A DNA stretch of 11,007 nucleotides, from positions 1 to 11,007 of IMG/VR virus record IMGVR_UViG_3300029577_000220; one strand, given 5' to 3'. This DNA is from a virus. Its lineage: Duplodnaviria > Heunggongvirae > Uroviricota > Caudoviricetes. The notes under the pieces were generated by a model. That model searched no databases. It was not told the DNA's origin and was given only the letters and a program-made list of their open reading frames with translations. The translations under genes were made by a program, and so were the position numbers. Within the stretch, counting starts at the first letter, position 1. The number at the start of each line of letters is the position of its first letter. Shown in pieces: positions 1-10,367 of the stretch.

Positions 1-1505
1 TGGTCTCTCATCCTTCTCCACTGCTGTACAAAATATAGTCTTAGCGTGGGATAATTTCCGTTTTCCAAGCGGACCCCTTTTTGTCCTCCATTCGCCCTGC
101 AAACAGGGTAGCCAGTTGGCCGATAATCAGAAGGTGAGACGCTCATAAGCTCTTTGCTGATGGTGGCCGACAGTGCGTCTTCGGTCATTTCACCGATTCC
201 GTCTTCCATCTCGTCGAGCGCCTTTAGCGCCTCCTCCAGAGTCATTTCATCCGGCGCAGGAACAAAGCCAGACTCACTGTCTTTGGGCACTTCCGCACCA
301 TCTTTATTTTCTTTGCCTTCGACGTCTTCTTCAGTTTCCCCACGATCAGTATCGGAGTCCTCACCGCCATCACCATCGATGCCAGAGCCATAACCATCAG
401 AATCATCGGTATCTTCGCGAATACCATCGCCAGGTCTTGGAGCGCCAGTGCCATTGCTGCCATCATCATCGGTGTCAGAGTCACTTGATTTCATGCCGAT
501 AGCATCGGATTCTGGGGTGTCTCCTGACTCTTCGTGGCCTGCTTCTGTATATTTACTTTCTGTATCACTAATATCTTTAACGTGTGTAGGTAAGTCCTTA
601 TCTAATGAATCAGGCAAATCGGAATCCCCAGAATCTTCCTCTTCTGATGCATCATCTTCTCGTTCTTCCTTGTCATCGCCTTCGCCTTTGGCAGGCTTAG
701 ATGCAGAGTCACCATGAGACGGCTCGTCACCTGATTCTGGCGTTTCCTCGGACTCGTCTTTGCTCTCCGACGGCTTTCTGGCAGATGATTTAAGTTCTGG
801 TAATTTGCCCTCTGGCTTGTCTTTCATATCCTGCATGATTTGGGCTATAGCAGCAGCGACCTTCACGCAATCCTCAGTGTTCGACATATTGCGAACGGCC
901 ACGTCTATACCATGCTCCTTTAGTAAGGCTACCGGCCTCTCGATAAGGCGCCAGTGTTCTTCCATAAAATCGATGAAGGGGCTTTGTCCATCCCAGGCGC
1001 GGACGACCGGGCAAAGGAAGAATTTCAAAAACAATTCACGCTGGTCTCCGTGACAGGCTAAAACCGCTTCTGGTACTTTATTCCTGAAGTATTTGTCGAT
1101 AACCAGACTCTGTGTTGCAAGTAAATTACGCCGGGTTCCGTTAAAGACCTGCCCCATTCTGCGTTCAATAAAAACGTCTTCCAGCGCATTCCAAAGCCCC
1201 GTAGACGGAGCCTTTCCTCTTTCGCGCATCTGCATTGCGACTTTCGGTTCAGTAAAGAGAATATGGGCCACCTCATGGTCGAGAAAACCACGCACTGCGT
1301 TCATGAGGGTTGGCGACGCGTCGTCCGGTATAGATGGGATGTTTACCAGCACTGGTTCGCCGCGCCGGTTATAGCGGACATATGCTTCATTGCCTCGTTC
1401 TGCAACAGGTATTTGTTTACCTGAAAGCATCGCTACAACTCGTTTTACACAGTCGCGAAAATCCTGCACCTCTTTCAGTACAGCTTTGGTGGTTTTTTTG
1501 GACAT
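1..1505 (-). CDS. Large protein with N-terminal globular region followed by a ~200-aa D/E/S/G-rich acidic low-complexity linker; architecture resembles CobT-like (cobaltochelatase CobT / vWA-associated) proteins. Start ATG at 1503-1505; 3' end lies beyond the window start, so ~501 codons are in the window.
   Basis: Minus-strand frame set by ATG 1503-1505 is open to position 3 (translated by hand at both ends: MSKKTTKAVLKEVQDFRDCVKRVVAMLSGKQIPVAERGNEAY ... SPSDYRPTGYPVCRANGGQKGVRLENGNYPTLRLYFVQQWRRMRD). AAGGGA Shine-Dalgarno-like sequence ~8 nt upstream of the ATG. The Ser-rich plus-strand ORFs in the track (154..717) are antisense shadows of the acidic repeat region. Family assignment is from architecture only. 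Confidence 0.6.
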   Translation of the reverse strand, partial: MSKKTTKAVLKEVQDFRDCVKRVVAMLSGKQIPVAERGNEAYVRYNRRGEPVLVNIPSIPDDASPTLMNAVRGFLDHEVAHILFTEPKVAMQMRERGKAPSTGLWNALEDVFIERRMGQVFNGTRRNLLATQSLVIDKYFRNKVPEAVLACHGDQRELFLKFFLCPVVRAWDGQSPFIDFMEEHWRLIERPVALLKEHGIDVAVRNMSNTEDCVKVAAAIAQIMQDMKDKPEGKLPELKSSARKPSESKDESEETPESGDEPSHGDSASKPAKGEGDDKEEREDDASEEEDSGDSDLPDSLDKDLPTHVKDISDTESKYTEAGHEESGDTPESDAIGMKSSDSDTDDDGSNGTGAPRPGDGIREDTDDSDGYGSGIDGDGGEDSDTDRGETEEDVEGKENKDGAEVPKDSESGFVPAPDEMTLEEALKALDEMEDGIGEMTEDALSATISKELMSVSPSDYRPTGYPVCRANGGQKGVRLENGNYPTLRLYFVQQWRRMRD

Positions 1506-1558
1506 TAGAATTCCCTTGTTGTTAAAACAATTTGTTTTCTGATGTGCGTAATTTATCA

Positions 1559-1591
1559 CTGTACGAACAGGCATCTAATCTGTTCGTACAG
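1559..1591. promoter_or_regulatory. Perfect 12-bp inverted repeat CTGTACGAACAG-N9-CTGTTCGTACAG in the 5' leader/promoter region of the 1..1505 gene; candidate operator or leader stem-loop.
   Basis: Arms 1559-1570 and 1580-1591 are exact reverse complements; located 54 bp upstream of the start codon at 1505. Confidence 0.4.
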
Positions 1592-1605
1592 GCGCTAGAG
1601 AGGAT

Positions 1606-1618
1606 GGGAGGGGGGGGG
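1606..1618. repeat. Homopolymeric G tract (GGGAG followed by 8 G) between the stop of the 1619..1831 ORF and the start of the 1..1505 gene.
   Basis: Direct reading of 1601-1620: aggatgggag ggggggggtt. Confidence 0.6.
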
Positions 1619-1831
1619 TTAAATTGTGCGGACGGCTACTGAACCGCAGCCGGTATTGATGAGAGTGAAGCACTTGCCCTTTAGCTCAAAGATGTATGCG
1701 GTTGCGTCTTTCATGTCAAGTAACAAAGACTTTGTTGGCAGTTCAGTGAGTATGGCTGCTGCCCCATCATCGTCAATTGAAATCGTATGTCCGACCTCAA
1801 GGGCGATCAAATTAGAAGTTATTTTTTTCAT
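1619..1831 (-). CDS. Hypothetical small protein (70 aa), divergent from the HTH regulator gene.
   Basis: ATG at 1829-1831 (minus), weak GGATGA SD-like sequence upstream; shares a 247-bp AT-rich divergent intergenic region with the 2088..2477 gene. No recognisable domain. Confidence 0.3.
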   Translation of the reverse strand: MKKITSNLIALEVGHTISIDDDGAAAILTELPTKSLLLDMKDATAYIFELKGKCFTLINTGCGSVAVRTI

Positions 1832-2087
1832 TTCATATCATCCAACTGAACACGTAAATACCTTGCAATACTACTACCTATTGTATCAATACGGAATACT
1901 TATGTATCAAATACAACTTAGTTTTAAGTTCTTAAATGAGTTATTTTTTAGATAGTTGTCTATTAATGAAGCCTTTTGCGGTCAGTAAACCTATGTAAAA
2001 AAATAGATAAGTCTTTACAACACTAACCTTTGATGTAATATCAGTAAGCACTTACCAAATAAAATCAAAACACGCAGGTTGATAATT

Positions 2088-2477
2088 ATGGCTACCAACG
2101 AAACAAAAGAAGCTAAAGTAAGTCGCTACGCTGCTTACATTGACGCTTTAATCGCGATTTCTCCGAAAAGCCAGGCGACCATCGCGAAAGAAGCAGGCTA
2201 TAAAAACCCTAACAATCTTTCACTTATCAAGAGCGGCAAAATCCCGCTTCCGATCGACAAGGTCAGAGCGTTGGCTAAAGCATTGGATGCCGATTCGGTC
2301 CGATTGATGCTAATGGTGCTGGAAGAGCGTCATCCAGAGCTGTTAGCGTTTTTTCGCGACGAAGGCACAGCCCCTCTGACTAAAGATGAAAAACTAGTTC
2401 TGGAAGCCTTCCGTCGACGTTTCGGTGACCAACGTGGTGCGTCGGAGCGGGTTGTTGAGGCAATCAAGTCGCTATGA
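2088..2477 (+). CDS. XRE/Cro-CI-type helix-turn-helix transcriptional regulator (129 aa from ATG 2088; the track ORF begins at an upstream in-frame TTG at 2079).
   Basis: HTH_3-like segment SQATIAKEAGYKNPNNLSLIKSGKIPLPIDKVRALAKALDAD; AGGT ~9 nt upstream of ATG 2088; AT-rich upstream region; convergent with the integrase and overlapping its 3' end by 6 bp. Confidence 0.65.
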   Translation: MATNETKEAKVSRYAAYIDALIAISPKSQATIAKEAGYKNPNNLSLIKSGKIPLPIDKVRALAKALDADSVRLMLMVLEERHPELLAFFRDEGTAPLTKDEKLVLEAFRRRFGDQRGASERVVEAIKSL

Positions 2478-3575
2478 GAAATTTACACGGATTAGCTCAG
2501 TAGCGAGTCGATCTCCCTTGAACTTATGATCTATCTCCTCTAAATCCTGTTTCTCTACGATTGATGCGATGTACGCCGAAAAACTGTTTAAGGCGTCTCG
2601 CATCTCGTCTATATAATCGTGTCGATCGTATACTCGATCTATCCCCTCAAGACTGTGGTTCATAATTTTGCGGGATACCTCCTGACTTATGCCTAACGCG
2701 GGGAAGTAACTACGCGCAGTACGACGCAAATCTCGGGGAGTAAATGGCTCAAGCTCCATCAACTCTGGACGTTCTAAAATCCTTCTCAACGCCTGTGATA
2801 TGGCCACCTTAGACATTGGCACATCCTCACCCTGTTTCTTGTTTGAAGGAACAAGCCACTGGCTGCCTTTTCCGTATTTGATCAGCTCCTCAACACATTT
2901 GCGCATTAGCGGGCTTAATGGTAACGAGTGCTGGCGAGCCGATTTATTCCTCGTTCCTTGATTCCATAAATTATATTCGAGGTTGAATTCTGATCTTTTA
3001 GCTCGGAGCACTTCATCTGGTCGTCTGGCCGCTACAAGGCATAATCTGGCCGCCCACTTTGTACCCTCACATACGTTGAAGTAGTCCCATACATTCCAAA
3101 AGACCCAGACCTCTGCGTCGGTCAGTTTGCGCTCGCGCGGCGTGGGCTTCGCGCCACCGGCTACTCTGTTAAGCGACATATCGTTCAATGGGGATGTATC
3201 AATTAAGCCCTGAAATGCACACCAACTGAGAAACTGCTTCATCAGCGAGAACACACGTCTGCCCTGGACGATCTTGCCCTCAAGTATTAATGGGTTCACC
3301 AGCTGGTTGACTAAAACCCTACTAATATCACTTACTTTTACTTCACAGATATGCGGCATTACATGTATCAAAATACAATGAACAGCTATTTCAGGTCGAC
3401 GTCTCGTTATCAGCAAAGATAAGCGAGTGAATAACATGAATGCGGAAGAAAACGACATATCACCGTCGAAATTGGTGGTCGACACTGCTGACAAACCGGA
3501 AGCGCGTTCGAGATACTCGATGGCTTCTCTAGAGGTGTTTTCTGCTGCGCGTGCTTTATCAAAAGTGTTTTTCAT
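2472..3575 (-). CDS. int: Tyrosine recombinase/integrase, P4-like family, lacking the N-terminal arm-binding (DUF4102-type) domain; possibly a truncated remnant.
   Basis: C-terminal catalytic region FTPRDLRRTARSYFPALGISQEVSRKIMNHSLEGIDRVYDRHDYID matches the integrase box II / R..Y architecture; core-binding region ISRVLVNQLVNPLILEGKIVQGRRVFSLMKQFLSWCAFQGLID matches the P4-integrase core-binding pattern. The region upstream of 3575 (3576-3874) is AT-rich and non-coding, so no arm-binding domain is encoded. Confidence 0.85.
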   Translation of the reverse strand: MKNTFDKARAAENTSREAIEYLERASGLSAVSTTNFDGDMSFSSAFMLFTRLSLLITRRRPEIAVHCILIHVMPHICEVKVSDISRVLVNQLVNPLILEGKIVQGRRVFSLMKQFLSWCAFQGLIDTSPLNDMSLNRVAGGAKPTPRERKLTDAEVWVFWNVWDYFNVCEGTKWAARLCLVAARRPDEVLRAKRSEFNLEYNLWNQGTRNKSARQHSLPLSPLMRKCVEELIKYGKGSQWLVPSNKKQGEDVPMSKVAISQALRRILERPELMELEPFTPRDLRRTARSYFPALGISQEVSRKIMNHSLEGIDRVYDRHDYIDEMRDALNSFSAYIASIVEKQDLEEIDHKFKGDRLATELIRVNFS

Positions 3576-3672
3576 AGTCCACTCACTGAGTGAAGCCTGT
3601 TTTTACTGTATTTATAAACAGTATGTTAGGCCTAAGTTTTGTATGATCAACAGTAAAATAGACTGTTTTTGA

Positions 3673-3707
3673 AAATGATTCCATACCTTACAAGTATGGA
3701 ATCATTT
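3673..3707. promoter_or_regulatory. Perfect 14-bp inverted repeat AAATGATTCCATAC-N7-GTATGGAATCATTT in the integrase upstream region; candidate operator/recombinase-binding site.
   Basis: Arms 3673-3686 and 3694-3707 are exact reverse complements; the arm core GTATGGAATCAT recurs at 5326-5337 and 6346-6357. Confidence 0.45.
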
Positions 3708-3874
3708 ATATAGCTTACGTAAATTCTGAATAAATTATGTAGACAAACCATCTTAAACGCTAAATAGTAAAAAGCGCCTAATAACGCCAACTTTGGAATG
3801 CCATCTGAGCCAGATTGATGAGAATGATTTGTTAGAAGAAAAAGAATGATGAAGAAGATGACGATCGCTAAAGT

Positions 3875-4291
3875 TCAGCTAGAATGGAAACCTTCTGCGA
3901 CTTCAGCGAAGTAGCTGAGCAACCTAGTATCTCTTGCTGGCATACGATCGTGAGCTGGAGTGACTAGCCCCATCAGCAAAAAACGCCCGCTATCCCACAT
4001 GTGCTCGGTATAAACGAGATAGTGGTTTGAGGTTCGGTTGTAGTTCTCTTGCCTTGCGTTCCAGGTAAGCTGGAAATGCAAATTGACGTGAATATGCTGG
4101 ACATTAGCATCAACGGCGAACGGCGGGAAGTCAAATGGCGCATCTCGTCCAAGAAGATTAGATGGTGCGCCAGTTGATTTGTAAGTAATGAACTCGGATT
4201 TGAGCTGACTTTCTAGGTCAGGGTAAACGACAAAAGTGGGCTGAAAAAAATCATCCCACGTAACTTGACTGTATTCAGCCGTTAATGCCAT
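3875..4291 (-). CDS. YafO-family toxin (ribosome-dependent mRNA interferase type), 138 aa.
   Basis: Block-wise resemblance to E. coli YafO recalled from memory: FITYKSTGAPSNLLGRDAPFDF vs FISYKRDGVLPDIFGRDALYDD; VQHIHV vs VAHIHL; RTSNHYLVYTE vs RTNDEAHLVYCQ; FLLMGLVTPAHDRMPARD vs WLLIAILKPEPHKLARD; AEGF vs AEAF. Start ATG 4289-4291 overlaps the upstream gene's last codons by 10 nt. Confidence 0.7.
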   Translation of the reverse strand: MALTAEYSQVTWDDFFQPTFVVYPDLESQLKSEFITYKSTGAPSNLLGRDAPFDFPPFAVDANVQHIHVNLHFQLTWNARQENYNRTSNHYLVYTEHMWDSGRFLLMGLVTPAHDRMPARDTRLLSYFAEVAEGFHSS

Positions 4292-4830
4292 TTAGCCGCA
4301 GCCTTGTTGCCAGTCTCTAATAGATGGTTCATGGCTAAAAGGTTGACACCAGAGTCACGCACTACAGAAGTGCGTGTAATCTGATCAATCAGATTGAGAT
4401 AGTTTTTGGTCGCAATACTGACCATTTTAATAGCCTTAAAAAACGCAAACTCAACAGTGTTTTTTTCGTAAGACATGATGACGTCTTTTTCAGGTAACAT
4501 CAAAACAAAAGATTCTGCGATACCGGCTACATGAATAGTTTGATTCTTAATTTCTTCCGCTACTTTGATAGCAGCAAAGAAGTCAGTGTCAGCATAATGA
4601 GCAAGTTCAGCGCGGCTTGAACGCAGTTCTTTAGCCAATTCATTGAGAGCAGCTGTAAGATCACTGATGTCGGTTTTGTTGACTCTAGCGCCCATCTCAT
4701 AAACCCGTTCTACAATCGTAGGCTGACACGCAACCGCTTTGGGTTGCGGCTGGATACTGGCAAGAACCAGTGCCACTGCTGCCTGCAAATGCTGGATTTT
4801 AAATTTCACGATAGACTCCATAATCGTCAT
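4282..4830 (-). CDS. Hypothetical 182-aa protein translationally coupled to the YafO-like toxin; putative cognate antitoxin/partner, not YafN/RelB-like.
   Basis: ORF with ATG at 4828-4830; stop TAA 4282-4284 overlaps the start of the YafO-like gene; no recognisable RelB/DinJ/YafN-like sequence and roughly twice the size of YafN. Confidence 0.6.
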   Translation of the reverse strand: MTIMESIVKFKIQHLQAAVALVLASIQPQPKAVACQPTIVERVYEMGARVNKTDISDLTAALNELAKELRSSRAELAHYADTDFFAAIKVAEEIKNQTIHVAGIAESFVLMLPEKDVIMSYEKNTVEFAFFKAIKMVSIATKNYLNLIDQITRTSVVRDSGVNLLAMNHLLETGNKAAAKWH

Positions 4831-4908
4831 TTCTCGACGAAGCGTAGCATTCTACTACTGAACTTAACTATAAGCTAAAAAAAGTTGGTTGCATATGCGA
4901 CTTGATAG

Positions 4909-5084: not shown

Positions 5085-5159
5085 TGGCGATGGTGGGTGG
5101 ACTCGAACCACCGACCAGTTGATTAACAGTCAACCGCTCTACCACTGAGCTACACCATC
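5085..5159 (-). tRNA. tRNA-Asn (anticodon GUU), 75 nt with encoded CCA.
   Basis: Minus-strand sequence GATGGTGTAGCTCAGTGGTAGAGCGGTTGACTGTTAATCAACTGGTCGGTGGTTCGAGTCCACCCACCATCGCCA folds by hand: acceptor GATGGTG/CACCATC, D-stem GCTC/GAGC, anticodon stem GTTGA/TCAAC with loop CTGTTAA, T-stem GGTGG/CCACC with loop TTCGAGT, discriminator G, CCA. Confidence 0.85.
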
Positions 5160-5408
5160 ATTTTCGCGGCGGTACTAGCTTATGGACAACCAGGCAGCCA
5201 GAAACTTTCCCGTAACTTGCACTTTACGTTAGTGCCAGACGAGGTATGTGGCTCGCTCATATGAGCGAAGATCTCGAATCTTTCTCGGTGGTTGATTGCC
5301 GTTAGATTCTTCGATCTTATTGGATGTATGGAATCATACATGTTGTGAAGCCAGGGGCAATAAAGGCAACAATGTTTTCACTAGAGGGTTAATTAATCCT
5401 GCTTTCAC

Positions 5409-5883: not shown

Positions 5884-5909
5884 TAGATAAGTAAGTAAAT
5901 ACTTATCTA
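5884..5909. promoter_or_regulatory. Palindromic site TAGATAAGTA-AGTAAA-TACTTATCTA overlapping the stop of the 5903..6208 gene; shares the 11-mer ATAAGTAAGTA with sites at 10811-10821 and 8582-8592 (reverse complement).
   Basis: 10-bp arms 5884-5893 and 5900-5909 are reverse complements; the 11-mer recurs at two other loci, both 5' of minus-strand genes. Confidence 0.4.
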
Positions 5910-6208: not shown

Positions 6209-6357
6209 TTTCGCACTCCCGTCTCGTGAACAACCCGATACACACGCTTACCGACACGAAGTGTTTTGGTTTGCAGTTCCTGCTGGACCAGGGCGCGGCA
6301 GATTGCGAGGCCGAGGCCCACGCCACCAGTAAAAGATAAAATGATGTATGGAATCAT
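6205..6357 (-). CDS. Hypothetical 50-aa protein with a hydrophobic N-terminus (MIPYIILSFTGGVGLGLAICRALVQQ...); not in the supplied ORF track (below the size cutoff).
   Basis: Hand translation: ATG at 6355-6357 overlaps the TGA of the 6357..6569 gene (TGATG), and its own TGA (6205-6207) overlaps the ATG of the 5903..6208 gene (ATGA). Confidence 0.3.
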   Translation of the reverse strand: MIPYIILSFTGGVGLGLAICRALVQQELQTKTLRVGKRVYRVVHETGVRK

Positions 6358-9153: not shown

Positions 9154-9480
9154 ATGACTAAAAATACTCGTTTTTCCCCCGAAGTCCGTCAGCGGGCGAT
9201 TCGTATGGTTCTGGAAAGTCAGGATGAATATGACTCACAGTGGGCGGCAATTTGTTCCATTGCCCCAAAGATTGGCTGTACGCCGGAGACTCTGCGTGTC
9301 TGGGTTCGCCAGCATGAGCGGGATACCGGGGGCGGTGATGGTGGGCTCACCAGCGCTGAACGTCAGCGTCTGAAAGAGCTGGAACGTGAAAATCGTGAAC
9401 TGCGCCGCAGTAACGATATCCTTCGCCAGGCTTCCGCTTATTTTGCGAAGGCGGAGTTCGACCGCCTCTGGAAAAAATGA
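9154..9480 (+). CDS. IS629 transposase OrfA (HTH and leucine-zipper part), 108 aa.
   Basis: [23 protein letters not shown]... is typical of IS629/IS1203-group OrfA; ends ...LWKK* at the A6 run 9472-9477, the expected -1 frameshift window. Confidence 0.9.
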
Positions 9481-10367
9481 TGCCACTGCTGGATAAGCTG
9501 CGTGAGCAGTACGGGGTCGGACCGGTATGCAGCGAACTGCATATTGCCCCGTCAACGTATTACCATTGTCAGCAACAGCGACATCATCCGGATAAACGCA
9601 GTGCCCGTGCGCAGCACGACGACTGGCTGAAGAGAGAGATACAGCGCGTATACGATGAAAATCATCAGGTGTACGGTGTGCGTAAAGTCTGGCGTCAGTT
9701 GTTACGGGAAGGAATCAGGGTGGCCAGATGTACAGTGGCACGTCTCATGGCGGTTATGGGACTTGCCGGTGTTCTCCGGGGTAAAAAGGTCCGTACGACC
9801 ATCAGCCGGAAAGCCGTTGCCGCAGGCGACCGCGTAAACCGTCAGTTCGTGGCAGAACGACCTGACCAGCTGTGGGTGGCTGATTTTACTTACGTCAGCA
9901 CATGGCAGGGCTTCGTCTATGTGGCGTTTATCATTGATGTGTTTGCCGGATACATCGTGGGGTGGCGGGTCTCATCGTCTATGGAAACGACATTCGTGCT
10001 GGATGCGCTGGAGCAGGCGTTGTGGGCCCGTCGTCCGTCTGGCACCATCCATCACAGCGATAAAGGCTCTCAGTATGTGTCACTGGCCTATACGGAGCGA
10101 CTAAAAGAAGCCGGATTACTGGCATCAACAGGGAGTACAGGCGACTCGTATGACAACGCGATGGCTGAGAGCATCAATGGTCTTTACAAAGCGGAGGTAA
10201 TACACCGTAAGAGCTGGAAAAACCGTGCAGAAGTGGAACTGGCCACACTAACGTGGGTGGACTGGTATAACAATCGACGATTGCTGGGAAGGCTGGGCCA
10301 TACTCCTCCGGCAGAAGCAGAAAAAGCTTATTATGCTTCCATCGGAAACGATGATCTGGCAGCCTGA
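9477..10367 (+). CDS. IS629 transposase OrfB (DDE/rve catalytic domain), 296 aa; expressed as an OrfAB fusion by -1 frameshifting.
   Basis: rve-type motifs [58 protein letters not shown]; overlaps orfA by 4 nt in the -1 frame. Confidence 0.9.

Follow-up and report, generated by a model that had tools for sequence, protein, structure and literature searches.

Putative cis-regulatory boxes at the regulator-recombinase locus of an SSU5/pHCM2/pMT1-type phage-plasmid of Escherichia coli

The DNA analysed here, a stretch of 11,007 nucleotides referred to as the window, is contained in a phage-plasmid of E. coli of the SSU5/pHCM2/pMT1 type. Phage-plasmids of this type are common across Enterobacterales and carry virulence and resistance cargo. 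The locus under study was matched by 826 plasmid records, and a complete plasmid of 115,200 bp that is 99.8% identical to the window served as the genome for plasmid-wide counts. In the literature searched, no description was found of the boxes considered below, of the nearby inverted repeat, or of the regulation of the locus, nor of lysogeny control, the recombinase target or an SOS link in SSU5/pHCM2/pMT1-type elements, and the same search returned no binding or transcript data on the boxes. Rfam matches consisted solely of a tRNA and an IS3 frameshift pseudoknot, with none at the locus of the boxes; two sRNAs of pMT1 are listed in a Y. pestis sRNA catalogue.

Genes and conserved sites of the locus

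The locus comprises an XRE-type regulator gene, a tyrosine recombinase gene and a divergent 70-codon gene heading a leftward gene run, which we read as a lytic-replication module (Table 1). Genes for dnaE, ligase, primase and helicase lie near the boxes, and the intergenic region has a G+C content of 26-32%.

Table 1. Coordinates of genes, boxes and candidate control elements in the window
Feature	Position	Strand	Description
70-codon gene	1619-1831	-	phrog_2627; heads leftward run, followed by cobT-like gene, AAA ATPase and dnaE
Candidate promoter B, leftward operon	1868-1896	-	-35 TTCCGT (1896-1891), 17-bp spacer, -10 TAGTAT (1873-1868); PWM scan
Alternative candidate promoter A	1880-1910	-	-35 TTGATA (1910-1905), 19-bp spacer, -10 TACAAT (1885-1880); made of boxes
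Site 1	1882-1892	+	TGTATCAATAC; TTGATACA on the sense strand of the leftward gene
Site 2	1903-1914	+	TGTATCAAATAC; 21 bp from site 1
Predicted regulator gene promoter and palindrome	2014-2056	+	TTTACA, 16-bp spacer, TAATAT (2014-2041); 1 bp on, AGTAAGCACTTACC (2043-2056)
XRE-type HTH regulator, 129 aa	2088-2477	+	Weak Pfam HTH matches; phrog_8, 1.3e-10
Tyrosine recombinase, 367 aa	2472-3575	-	Short N-terminal segment, then core-binding and catalytic domains
Site 3	3364-3376	+	Core TGTATCAAAATAC, within full match ATGTATCAAAATACAA (3363-3378); recombinase codons 66-71
Two further synonymously frozen blocks	3406-3440	-	Codons 46-53 (3418-3440) and TGATAAC (3406-3412)
Weak antisense promoter candidate	3408-3437	+	TTATCA, 19 bp, TAACAT
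Predicted recombinase promoter	3604-3650	-	TTGATC (3650-3645), 16-bp spacer, TAACAT (3628-3623)
Consensus LexA box	3604-3623	-	TACTGTATTTATAAACAGTA; over recombinase -10 and start region
Perfect 13-7-13 inverted repeat	3674-3706		AATGATTCCATAC-CTTACAA-GTATGGAATCATT

The regulator is an ortholog of CYRAN_45 of phage Cyrano, annotated as a putative repressor, which is expressed in lysogens at approximately 10-fold over the local background (PMC9928086). Its recognition helix, NNLSLIKSGK, hardly changes between clades whose sites 1 and 2 vary. The predicted promoter of the regulator gene, together with an invariant palindrome (GGTAAGYACTTACC) that starts 1 bp past the -10 and has a degenerate copy over the -35, forms the best-conserved intergenic part in all relatives. 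Related palindromes number approximately 13 in the plasmid, mostly in intergenic DNA, and approximately 8 in Cyrano. GGTAAGYACTTACC is a candidate operator whose likely partner is the XRE repressor. The leftward promoter region contains no copy of this dispersed palindrome.

The recombinase matched the catalytic domain PF00589 (E 6.5e-09), with an additional weak match to a central domain. PF13356 and PF09003 were unmatched, residues 1-44 forming a family-specific segment with no arm-binding domain, and PF13356 was found only in relatives at 23-33% identity. In the family alignment the catalytic residues R185, K211, R284 and Y316 are invariant and H307 nearly so, with Arg281 replacing His at the first position of the HxxR box. 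A fold search gave the core-binding and catalytic domains of lambda integrase as the top match, with IntI4 lower, and PDB sequence searches with the regulator and the recombinase returned no matches.

The consensus LexA box over the predicted recombinase promoter was kept in all nine relatives first fetched and at 87 of 92 loci, and its PWM score of 25.9 bits is at the level of the best known boxes. Farther upstream, the perfect inverted repeat lies 95-99 bp from the recombinase ATG at 91 of 92 loci; its arms are invariant in the 92 loci, and its spacer occurs in eight variants. In relatives from Pantoea, Xenorhabdus and Providencia (43-46% identity) both arms jointly become TGACTCCAGAC. In a simple lox/FRT-type site, inverted arms of 11-14 bp flank an asymmetric spacer of 6-8 bp; the arms, the spacer length and its freedom to vary, the adjacency to the gene and the co-variation of arms and enzyme agree with such a site, and this pattern points to the repeat as a likely candidate target of the recombinase.

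Occurrence and conservation of the boxes

The three copies share the pattern TGTATCA-A(1-3)-TAC, and the starts of sites 1 and 2 lie 21 bp apart, leaving a gap of 10 bp. The pattern TGTATCA-N0-3-ATAC had three matches in the window versus none in any of 200 dinucleotide shuffles, which disfavours chance and bears out the earlier note, made from the window alone, in its report of three related copies; its positions for the second (1903-1914) and third (3363-3378) were exact, and that for the first (1883-1893) was off by one base. The search of the whole genome that it had proposed limited the full pattern to these three copies in the 115,200-bp plasmid (0.2 expected, shuffle maximum 2), and in Cyrano a relaxed box pattern was present at this locus alone. 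Pairs of TATCA at 21 bp were likewise confined to this locus in the plasmid and in Cyrano under the strictest spacing pattern, with one additional pair in the plasmid under one looser pattern. The short core is not enriched in the plasmid (17 TGTATCA versus 13 expected; 30 TRTATCA versus 23 expected), and a genome-wide regulon was rejected, given this lack of enrichment and the absence of a second phased pair under the strict spacing patterns. Additional copies of TGTATCAA lie at 3195 and 10704 in the window; the former was rejected as a fourth site, since its synonymous positions vary freely in relatives and it is unconserved.

Sites 1 and 2 had been assigned to the promoter region of the regulator, which is only loosely right: they lie 174-206 bp upstream of the regulator ATG, and approximately 100 bp upstream of its -35, and are nearer to the divergent 70-codon gene, at 51-83 bp upstream of its ATG. 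In a PWM scan the boxes bracket or coincide with the sole promoter-like elements upstream of that gene, both of which are candidate promoters. Promoter B, the -35 of which is flanked by sites 1 and 2, is the sole -35/-10 pair whose position recurs in most of the clades sampled (7 of 10 representatives), with low PWM scores, and its -10 ends 36-39 bp from the ATG.

Clades with 70-80% DNA identity contributed 33 distinct intergenic variants, and across these relatives only the TRTATCA core and the ungapped 21-bp spacing are kept; the adjoining ~100 bp toward the regulator gene are poorly conserved, with many indels. Site 1 retains TKTATCAAWAY in every clade except Klebsiella, where a similar box occurs on the opposite strand. 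At site 2 only (T/C/A)RTATCA is retained across clades (TATATCAGATAC or CATATCATATGC in other clades), and a G/A polymorphism is seen there even between near-identical plasmids. The right half of the boxes is unconserved across clades, and the near-identity of sites 2 and 3 that had been remarked on is true in the clade of the window, the extended likeness over 11-13 nt being absent from other clades. Relatives with a recombinase 59-63% identical have similar boxes at a similar distance from the 70-codon gene, namely TGTATCAAT in Serratia, TTATCAAAACACAAT in the P0016 lineage and TATATCAAAAAT in Nissabacter. The copies are thus real, statistically unexpected, conserved, phased and locus-specific.

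In 8 of 11 lineages, the intergenic sequence that best matched the site 3 16-mer without gaps was site 1, with its orientation unchanged; the match was absent in three distant lineages. Measured against control 16-mers, it falls in the top 0.5-2% for the window and the pHCM2 and pMT1 clades and is unremarkable in the Cyrano clade, where 13-17% of the controls do as well.

Site 3 lies within coding sequence

On the minus strand site 3 reads CAT TGT ATT TTG ATA CAT. The proposal that the recombinase ORF begins with regulatory or attP-like DNA instead of true codons is not supported, in view of protein conservation, confidently modelled helices, a predicted upstream promoter with its LexA box, and the lack of conservation of Met73; site 3 sits in real coding sequence. 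Across 68 distinct genes of 1101-1107 nt the first 72 codons keep an intact frame, with conservation at the protein level and synonymous variation. Residues 1-26 and 45-75 are conserved, third positions vary ordinarily outside the frozen blocks described below, and the family alignment shows the N-terminus to be conserved in distant relatives at 43-63% identity. An AlphaFold2 model of the recombinase (mean pLDDT 85) places helices 42-57 and 61-71 in the core-binding domain, with mean pLDDT values of 89-95 for the 10-residue blocks. Codon 73 is the only in-frame internal ATG near the motif; a later start at this Met73 (ATG 3359-3357) was rejected, as relatives have Met, Leu (TTG) or Leu (CTC) at this position and a Shine-Dalgarno sequence is absent. 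The boxes are therefore unsuitable as grounds for re-annotating the recombinase start.

Codons 66-71 are almost frozen synonymously in the enterobacterial clade, with a synonymous-codon entropy of 0.16 bit where the gene averages 0.90; of approximately 362 six-codon windows in the 68 distinct genes, only two score lower, and site 3 falls in one of the two stretches of the gene with the strongest synonymous constraint. A gene-wide column shuffle gave P = 0.054 for a window as constrained as site 3, these 68 sequences being phylogenetically related. Among the codons frozen here are the rare ATA and TTG, and the peptide HC(I/V)LIH itself fixes approximately 10 of the 18 bases of site 3. In relatives at 57-63% identity the DNA motif of site 3 is lost and the peptide HC[IVM]L[IM]H is kept. 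Taken together with this near-absence of synonymous change, the sequences suggest that codons 66-71 probably act also as DNA in the enterobacterial clade.

Two more synonymously frozen blocks lie nearby and jointly contain TTATC-N6-GATAA (3408-3423); synonymous entropy reaches its minimum for the gene in the window of codons 47-52 (0.088 bit), and for a minimum as low as this the column shuffle gave P = 0.012. RNA structure as the source of the synonymous constraint was rejected, RNAalifold giving -5.2 kcal/mol and zero compensatory pairs.

Interpretation of the boxes and comparison with known systems

Our tentative reading, held with somewhat less than even confidence, is that the three boxes are putative locus-specific cis-regulatory sites for protein binding, with sites 1 and 2 acting at the leftward promoter and site 3 as an auxiliary. 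Judged from their sequence and placement, the boxes probably bind a regulator of a neighbouring promoter. With TRTATCA (minus strand, TTGATAYA) as their shared core, sites 1 and 2 would form a phased pair, the 21 bp corresponding to two helical turns, that brackets the leftward -35 region, and a sequence-specific factor on this pair would set the activity of the leftward promoter. Site 3 would represent a third copy within the codons of helix 61-71 of the core-binding domain, kept as both DNA and protein in the enterobacterial clade, and would most likely be an auxiliary site for that factor, lying 1.46 kb from the pair across the repressor and recombinase genes. We infer that a protein binds the boxes, that the leftward promoter is the one served, and that site 3 is linked to sites 1 and 2. 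A more far-reaching form, in which a single factor on all three boxes loops the 1.46 kb and ties the lytic-replication promoter to a dual-use operator in the recombinase codons, is distinctly speculative; if true, the repressor and recombinase genes would lie inside a regulatory loop that is part of an SSU5-type lysis-lysogeny switch.

The suggestion that the boxes are binding sites for the HTH regulator or the recombinase stands in part. They behave as functional DNA, in that the core and phasing are kept, the boxes are locus-specific and site 3 is held synonymously, but both of the binders named are weakened by the presence of better candidate sites. The XRE regulator is a possible binder that we do not favour, and it is rather unlikely that the boxes are operators through which this putative lysogeny repressor represses the divergent lytic operon while also binding site 3. 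Its gene adjoins the boxes, the Cyrano ortholog is a lysogen-expressed putative repressor, and the locus-specificity of the boxes is what a local regulator predicts; moreover, the leftward promoter region lacks the dispersed palindrome and therefore needs some other control. However, the GTAT/ATAC half-sites lie 2, 3 or 4 bp apart, a different distance in each copy, and, as the right half is also unconserved, there is no fixed palindrome, which is at odds with a dimeric HTH operator of the XRE/CI/Cro type, in which the half-site distance is fixed. In addition, the promoter of the regulator itself has a different invariant palindrome with dispersed relatives, and the recognition helix is invariant while sites 1 and 2 vary.

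Sites 1 and 2 could partly be promoter hexamers themselves. That they are simply the sigma-70 hexamers of promoter A, with site 3 as a coding coincidence or part of a weak antisense promoter, appears doubtful. Promoter A has the top PWM score upstream of the 70-codon gene in the window and in the pMT1, pHCM2 and Enterobacter clades, and the conserved core on the sense strand, xTGATA, is -35-like. The antisense pair within the recombinase gene reaches the 99.9th percentile there and is invariant, the latter because it coincides with the frozen blocks. Nevertheless, sigma-70 is poorly served by a spacer of 19 bp, the Cyrano clade keeps the boxes despite a broken -10 (TAYAAA), the invariant part of site 1 is TTGATA and not the -10-like part, the Klebsiella box lies on the other strand, and neither pair passes the promoter scan.

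It is improbable that the AT-rich gap beside the replication genes holds a lytic replication origin with sites 1 and 2 as its iterons: the low G+C content, the locus-specific direct repeats approximately two helical turns apart and the replication genes nearby agree with such a role, but there are only two copies, positions 1832-2087 contain no DnaA boxes, the locus has neither an initiator gene nor a strand-skew switch, and the AT-rich part between the boxes and the regulator promoter is the least conserved.

The recombinase is an unlikely binder of the boxes, and that these are its arm-type or attP-like sites, with the 5' part of its ORF as recombination-site DNA, is very improbable. In favour are the nearness of the gene and the precedent of P2 Cox, 186 Apl and P4 Vis, whose boxes occur at a switch promoter as well as at an att site. 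Against this, the enzyme lacks an arm-binding domain, the 5' region is demonstrably coding, and the upstream 13-7-13 repeat, with invariant arms and a variable spacer, co-varies with the enzyme. Site 3 lies approximately 300-320 bp and sites 1 and 2 approximately 1.8 kb from that repeat, which departs from arm-type spacing (core within ~100-250 bp). A resemblance of the boxes to the repeat arms was rejected on inspection by eye, matches beyond GTAT being at chance level.

That site 3 is a weak second LexA site is just as improbable. The inner part of the LexA consensus reads TGTAT-N4-ATACA, and with the spacing of a LexA box (ATGT-N8-ACAA) site 3 is the second-best PWM match in the window, 240 bp from the true box, which ranks first; but it scores 5.5 bits versus 25.9 for the true box and at least 12.1 for the weakest of 25 known boxes, ranks 22nd in the plasmid, has lost both outer C/G positions with a right half of ACACA in other clades, and sites 1 and 2 have the wrong spacing (N6, N7). 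An IHF site was also rejected, as WATCAA in the boxes is never followed by NNNNTTR on either strand (by eye).

With the three boxes tentatively read as sites of a locus-specific factor, the control locus can be mapped by three kinds of conserved site, each with a different likely partner: these boxes, the palindrome GGTAAGYACTTACC with the XRE repressor, and the LexA box and 13-7-13 repeat with host LexA and the recombinase, respectively. The boxes themselves are an ordinary type of feature.

Several parts of this map resemble known systems. As in P1 Cre/loxP, Flp/FRT, Vika/vox and Panto/pox, the recombinase gene has a perfect 13-bp inverted repeat with a short asymmetric spacer beside it, and P1 Cre is likewise a tyrosine recombinase of a phage-plasmid. 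Unlike Cre, the enzyme described here has a lambda/P4-like sequence and fold; its gene lies under a LexA box, the repeat has a 7-bp spacer, and enzyme and repeat are a candidate pair only. The overlap of a LexA box with the promoter is shared with integron intI, a LexA-controlled tyrosine recombinase gene adjoining its site and variable cargo, and the candidate site here is situated on or close to the edge of a region that varies among relatives; the locus differs from intI in having no attC-like cassettes, and its enzyme family is not IntI, with IntI4 below lambda integrase in the fold search. With the LexA box CTGT-N8-ACAG itself, site 3 shares the inner ten bases and lies 240 bp from a consensus copy; it differs in lacking the outer C and G and in scoring far under known boxes, and sites 1 and 2 are misspaced.

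The boxes of P2 Cox, 186 Apl and P4 Vis, which occur at the lysis-lysogeny promoter and at the att site, are, as here, short direct repeats that occur in a divergent promoter region and once more near a recombinase gene. In contrast to those systems, the locus encodes no small protein of the Cox or Apl kind, its boxes are phased at 21 bp versus approximately 10.5 bp, site 3 lies approximately 300 bp from the candidate recombination core, and the element is a plasmid prophage with no known need for excision. Finally, lambda OL-OR looping and coliphage 186 FL/FR likewise involve repeated boxes at a switch promoter and a copy at kilobase distance in or near other genes; their operators are fixed-spacing palindromes for a known dimeric repressor, whereas the boxes described here combine variable spacing and a 7-bp core with a distal copy inside coding sequence.

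The phage-plasmid locus and its boxes

The window is a member of the SSU5/pHCM2/pMT1 phage-plasmid group. Its positions 1500-4900 share 99.8% identity with an E. coli plasmid (115 kb, IncFIB, non-mobilisable), and are matched by hundreds of plasmids, 100-115 kb in size, from Escherichia, Enterobacter, Yersinia (pMT1), Salmonella (pHCM2), Citrobacter, and Klebsiella, as well as by phages Cyrano and PhiR41_1. The gene order of the locus (see Table) is unchanged in relatives with recombinases of just 43-63% identity. The YafO pair lies in the variable DNA that separates the inverted repeat from tRNA-Asn. A 182-codon ORF precedes and overlaps the YafO-family toxin gene; it presumably encodes the antitoxin and has only a faint ribbon-helix-helix match. 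At 9154-10367, an IS3-family element with two ORFs and an ALIL frameshift pseudoknot (Rfam RF01497, 121 bits) borders sequence in which the window and the reference plasmid differ.

Three boxes of the form TGTATCA-A(1-3)-TAC (sites 1, 2, and 3), reported in an earlier note, are all present in the window; the positions given for sites 2 and 3 were correct and that of site 1 was one base off. The gapped pattern has these three matches vs. none in 200 shuffles, and no further match was found in the 115-kb plasmid (0.2 expected). In Cyrano the relaxed pattern is confined to the same locus, and the strictest spacing pattern, a TATCA pair 21 bp apart, has its sole occurrence in both plasmid and Cyrano at this locus. 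The 7-bp core by itself is not enriched in the plasmid.

Features of the locus (window positions unless stated otherwise)
Feature	Position	Strand	Sequence or remark
cobT-like gene		-	first in local gene order
70-codon gene	1619-1831	-	
AT-rich gap, 256 bp			between 70-codon gene and regulator
Candidate promoter A			TTGATA, 19 bp, TACAAT; position-weight scan; built from the boxes themselves
Candidate promoter B			TTCCGT, 17 bp, TAGTAT; position-weight scan; weak
Site 1	1882-1892		
Site 2	1903-1914		
Degenerate palindrome copy	2004-2019		over regulator promoter -35
Palindrome	2043-2056		GGTAAGYACTTACC
Further palindromes	589-602, 5894-5907		TAGGTAAGYRCTTACCTA type
XRE-type regulator	2088-2477	+	
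Tyrosine recombinase	2472-3575	-	convergent with regulator
Antisense near-copy of arm	2957-2969	+	GTATGGAATCA
Site 3	3363-3378		
Frozen codons 46-53, 55-57	3406-3440		
Recombinase promoter	3604-3650		TTGATC, 16 bp, TAACAT; upstream of annotated ATG
Consensus LexA box			TACTGTATTTATAAACAGTA; over -10 and start region of recombinase promoter
Perfect 13-7-13 inverted repeat	3674-3706		AATGATTCCATAC-N7-GTATGGAATCATT
YafO toxin gene with preceding 182-codon ORF	3875-4830		toxin pair follows recombinase
tRNA-Asn	5085-5159		follows YafO pair
Lone arm copies	5323-5337, 6343-6357	-	ATGATTCCATACATC
Lone arm copy, outside window	NZ_CP101235.1 21723-21737	+	ATGATTCCATACATC
IS3-family element	9154-10367		

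Sites 1 and 2 and the leftward promoter

Alignment of the intergenic region of 92 related loci yielded 33 distinct variants of the site 1-2 block, in which the TRTATCA core is kept at both sites with an ungapped 21-bp spacing. The adjoining AATACTACTA and a GAAT between the boxes are also conserved; only in the window's clade does site 2 take the longer form TGTATCAAATACAA, and the approximately 100 bp beyond the boxes on the regulator-gene side are variable and rich in indels. The 70-codon gene has its ATG 51-83 bp away from sites 1 and 2, and the regulator promoter has its -35 at a distance of about 100 bp; the boxes are therefore assigned to the leftward promoter serving the 70-codon gene. 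Two candidate promoters were detected there: candidate B, of which the -35 is flanked by one box on each side, recurs at an unchanged position in most sampled clades (7 of 10 representatives), and candidate A is broken in the Cyrano clade. Serratia, Nissabacter, and one further lineage carry related boxes at similar positions. No DnaA box or other origin feature was found beside sites 1 and 2, and inspection by eye revealed no complete IHF consensus at the boxes.

Site 3 within the recombinase gene

The earlier note had suggested that the 5' region of the recombinase ORF may be regulatory or attP-like rather than truly coding; this reading is refuted by the data. The 367-codon frame is intact in 68 distinct genes, protein-level conservation covers residues 1-26 and 45-75 with third positions changing ordinarily, and the family with the same short N-terminus reaches proteins of 43-63% identity; the classical arm-binding domain PF13356 takes its place only in relatives of 23-33% identity. 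AlphaFold2 (mean pLDDT 85) modelled residues 42-57 and 61-71 as confident core-binding-domain helices, with lambda integrase as the closest solved fold. Moreover, the promoter lies upstream of the annotated start, and codon 73, the sole nearby in-frame ATG, encodes Leu in other clades; the annotated start is therefore the best choice. At position one of the HxxR active-site box, residue 281 of the recombinase, the family has Arg in place of His (PRDLRR); in P4-like relatives at a greater distance the box reads PHDLRR.

At codons 66-71 (CAT TGT RTT TTG ATA CAT), synonymous-codon entropy falls to 0.16 bit vs. a gene mean of 0.90, third lowest among about 362 windows; the lowest is codons 47-52. 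Synonymous sites are also frozen at codons 46-53 and 55-57 (TGATAAC), which together hold TTATC-N6-GATAA and, in antisense orientation, a weak pair of promoter-like hexamers (TTATCA, 19 bp, TAACAT). Codon preference does not explain the frozen codons, because the rare ATA and TTG are among them, and RNAalifold found no RNA structure behind the constraint. The constraint does not extend beyond the enterobacterial clade: at 57-63% identity, relatives retain the peptide and not the DNA. By gene-wide shuffling, site 3 reached only P = 0.054, compared with P = 0.012 for codons 47-52. This is moderate evidence that site 3 functions as DNA as well. Its relation to sites 1 and 2 is suggested more weakly: the best intergenic match of the site-3 16-mer is site 1 in 8 of 11 lineages, with significance in some only. 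As a LexA box, site 3 fits in spacing and inner bases but scores 5.5 bits vs. at least 12.1 for the known boxes on which the matrix was trained.

Candidate targets of regulator and recombinase

That the boxes bind a protein is plausible; both proteins named in the earlier note, the HTH regulator and the recombinase, have better candidate sites elsewhere. With variable half-site spacing and a one-sided conserved core, the boxes do not fit a dimeric HTH operator, and the recognition helix of the regulator is invariant where sites 1 and 2 vary. The most conserved block of the intergenic gap is the regulator promoter (TTTACA, 16 bp, TAATAT), and the palindrome begins 1 bp after it. Allowing up to 2 mismatches, related palindromes (TAGGTAAGYRCTTACCTA) were found at about 13 mostly intergenic plasmid sites and about 8 sites in Cyrano, and could constitute a dispersed, P1-C1-like operator set or a hairpin element; among the sites are the gap between terminase and portal genes, DNA upstream of the capsid gene, and early regions. 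The regulator ortholog in Cyrano is annotated as a putative repressor. Lysogens express it, and ciprofloxacin induces Cyrano (PMC9928086).

For the recombinase, the inverted repeat is a candidate lox-like target; in 91 of 92 loci, 95-99 bp separate it from the ATG downstream. Across all 92 loci its arms do not vary, and its spacer has 8 variants, including two mutually reverse-complementary pairs (CTACTAT/ATAGTAG and CTATTAA/TTAATAG); in Pantoea, Xenorhabdus, and Providencia relatives both arms switch together to TGACTCCAGAC. This arm and spacer pattern is as would be expected of such a target. Homology among relatives stops 0-30 bp past the repeat, where variable cargo starts, such as yafO toxin-antitoxin genes (window), caf1 (pMT1), or microcin immunity (Klebsiella). 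The arm sequence occurs in five copies per genome, including the two arms, vs. 0.03 expected. The three lone copies are at syntenic positions shared by the window's plasmid and Cyrano (73% identical) and are all oriented toward the repeat, the two upstream ones 1,020 bp apart; one coincides with the point where a small ORF (MIPYI...) begins, and another is antisense within dnaE. The near-copy of the candidate binding arm falls in the recombinase codons for (V/L)WNQ; 43 of 92 loci, as well as two distant lineages (position 3617 (-) there), match its 10-nt core exactly. Of the 92 related loci, 87 retain the LexA box, as do relatives of 58-61% identity. The -35 of the recombinase promoter contains GATC. 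With this consensus box lying over the -10 and start region of its promoter, the recombinase is probably SOS-induced.

No description of the regulation of this phage-plasmid element was found in the literature searched. The boxes are a further instance of a familiar feature, in which conserved repeats accompany a phage control promoter and one of them overlaps a gene.
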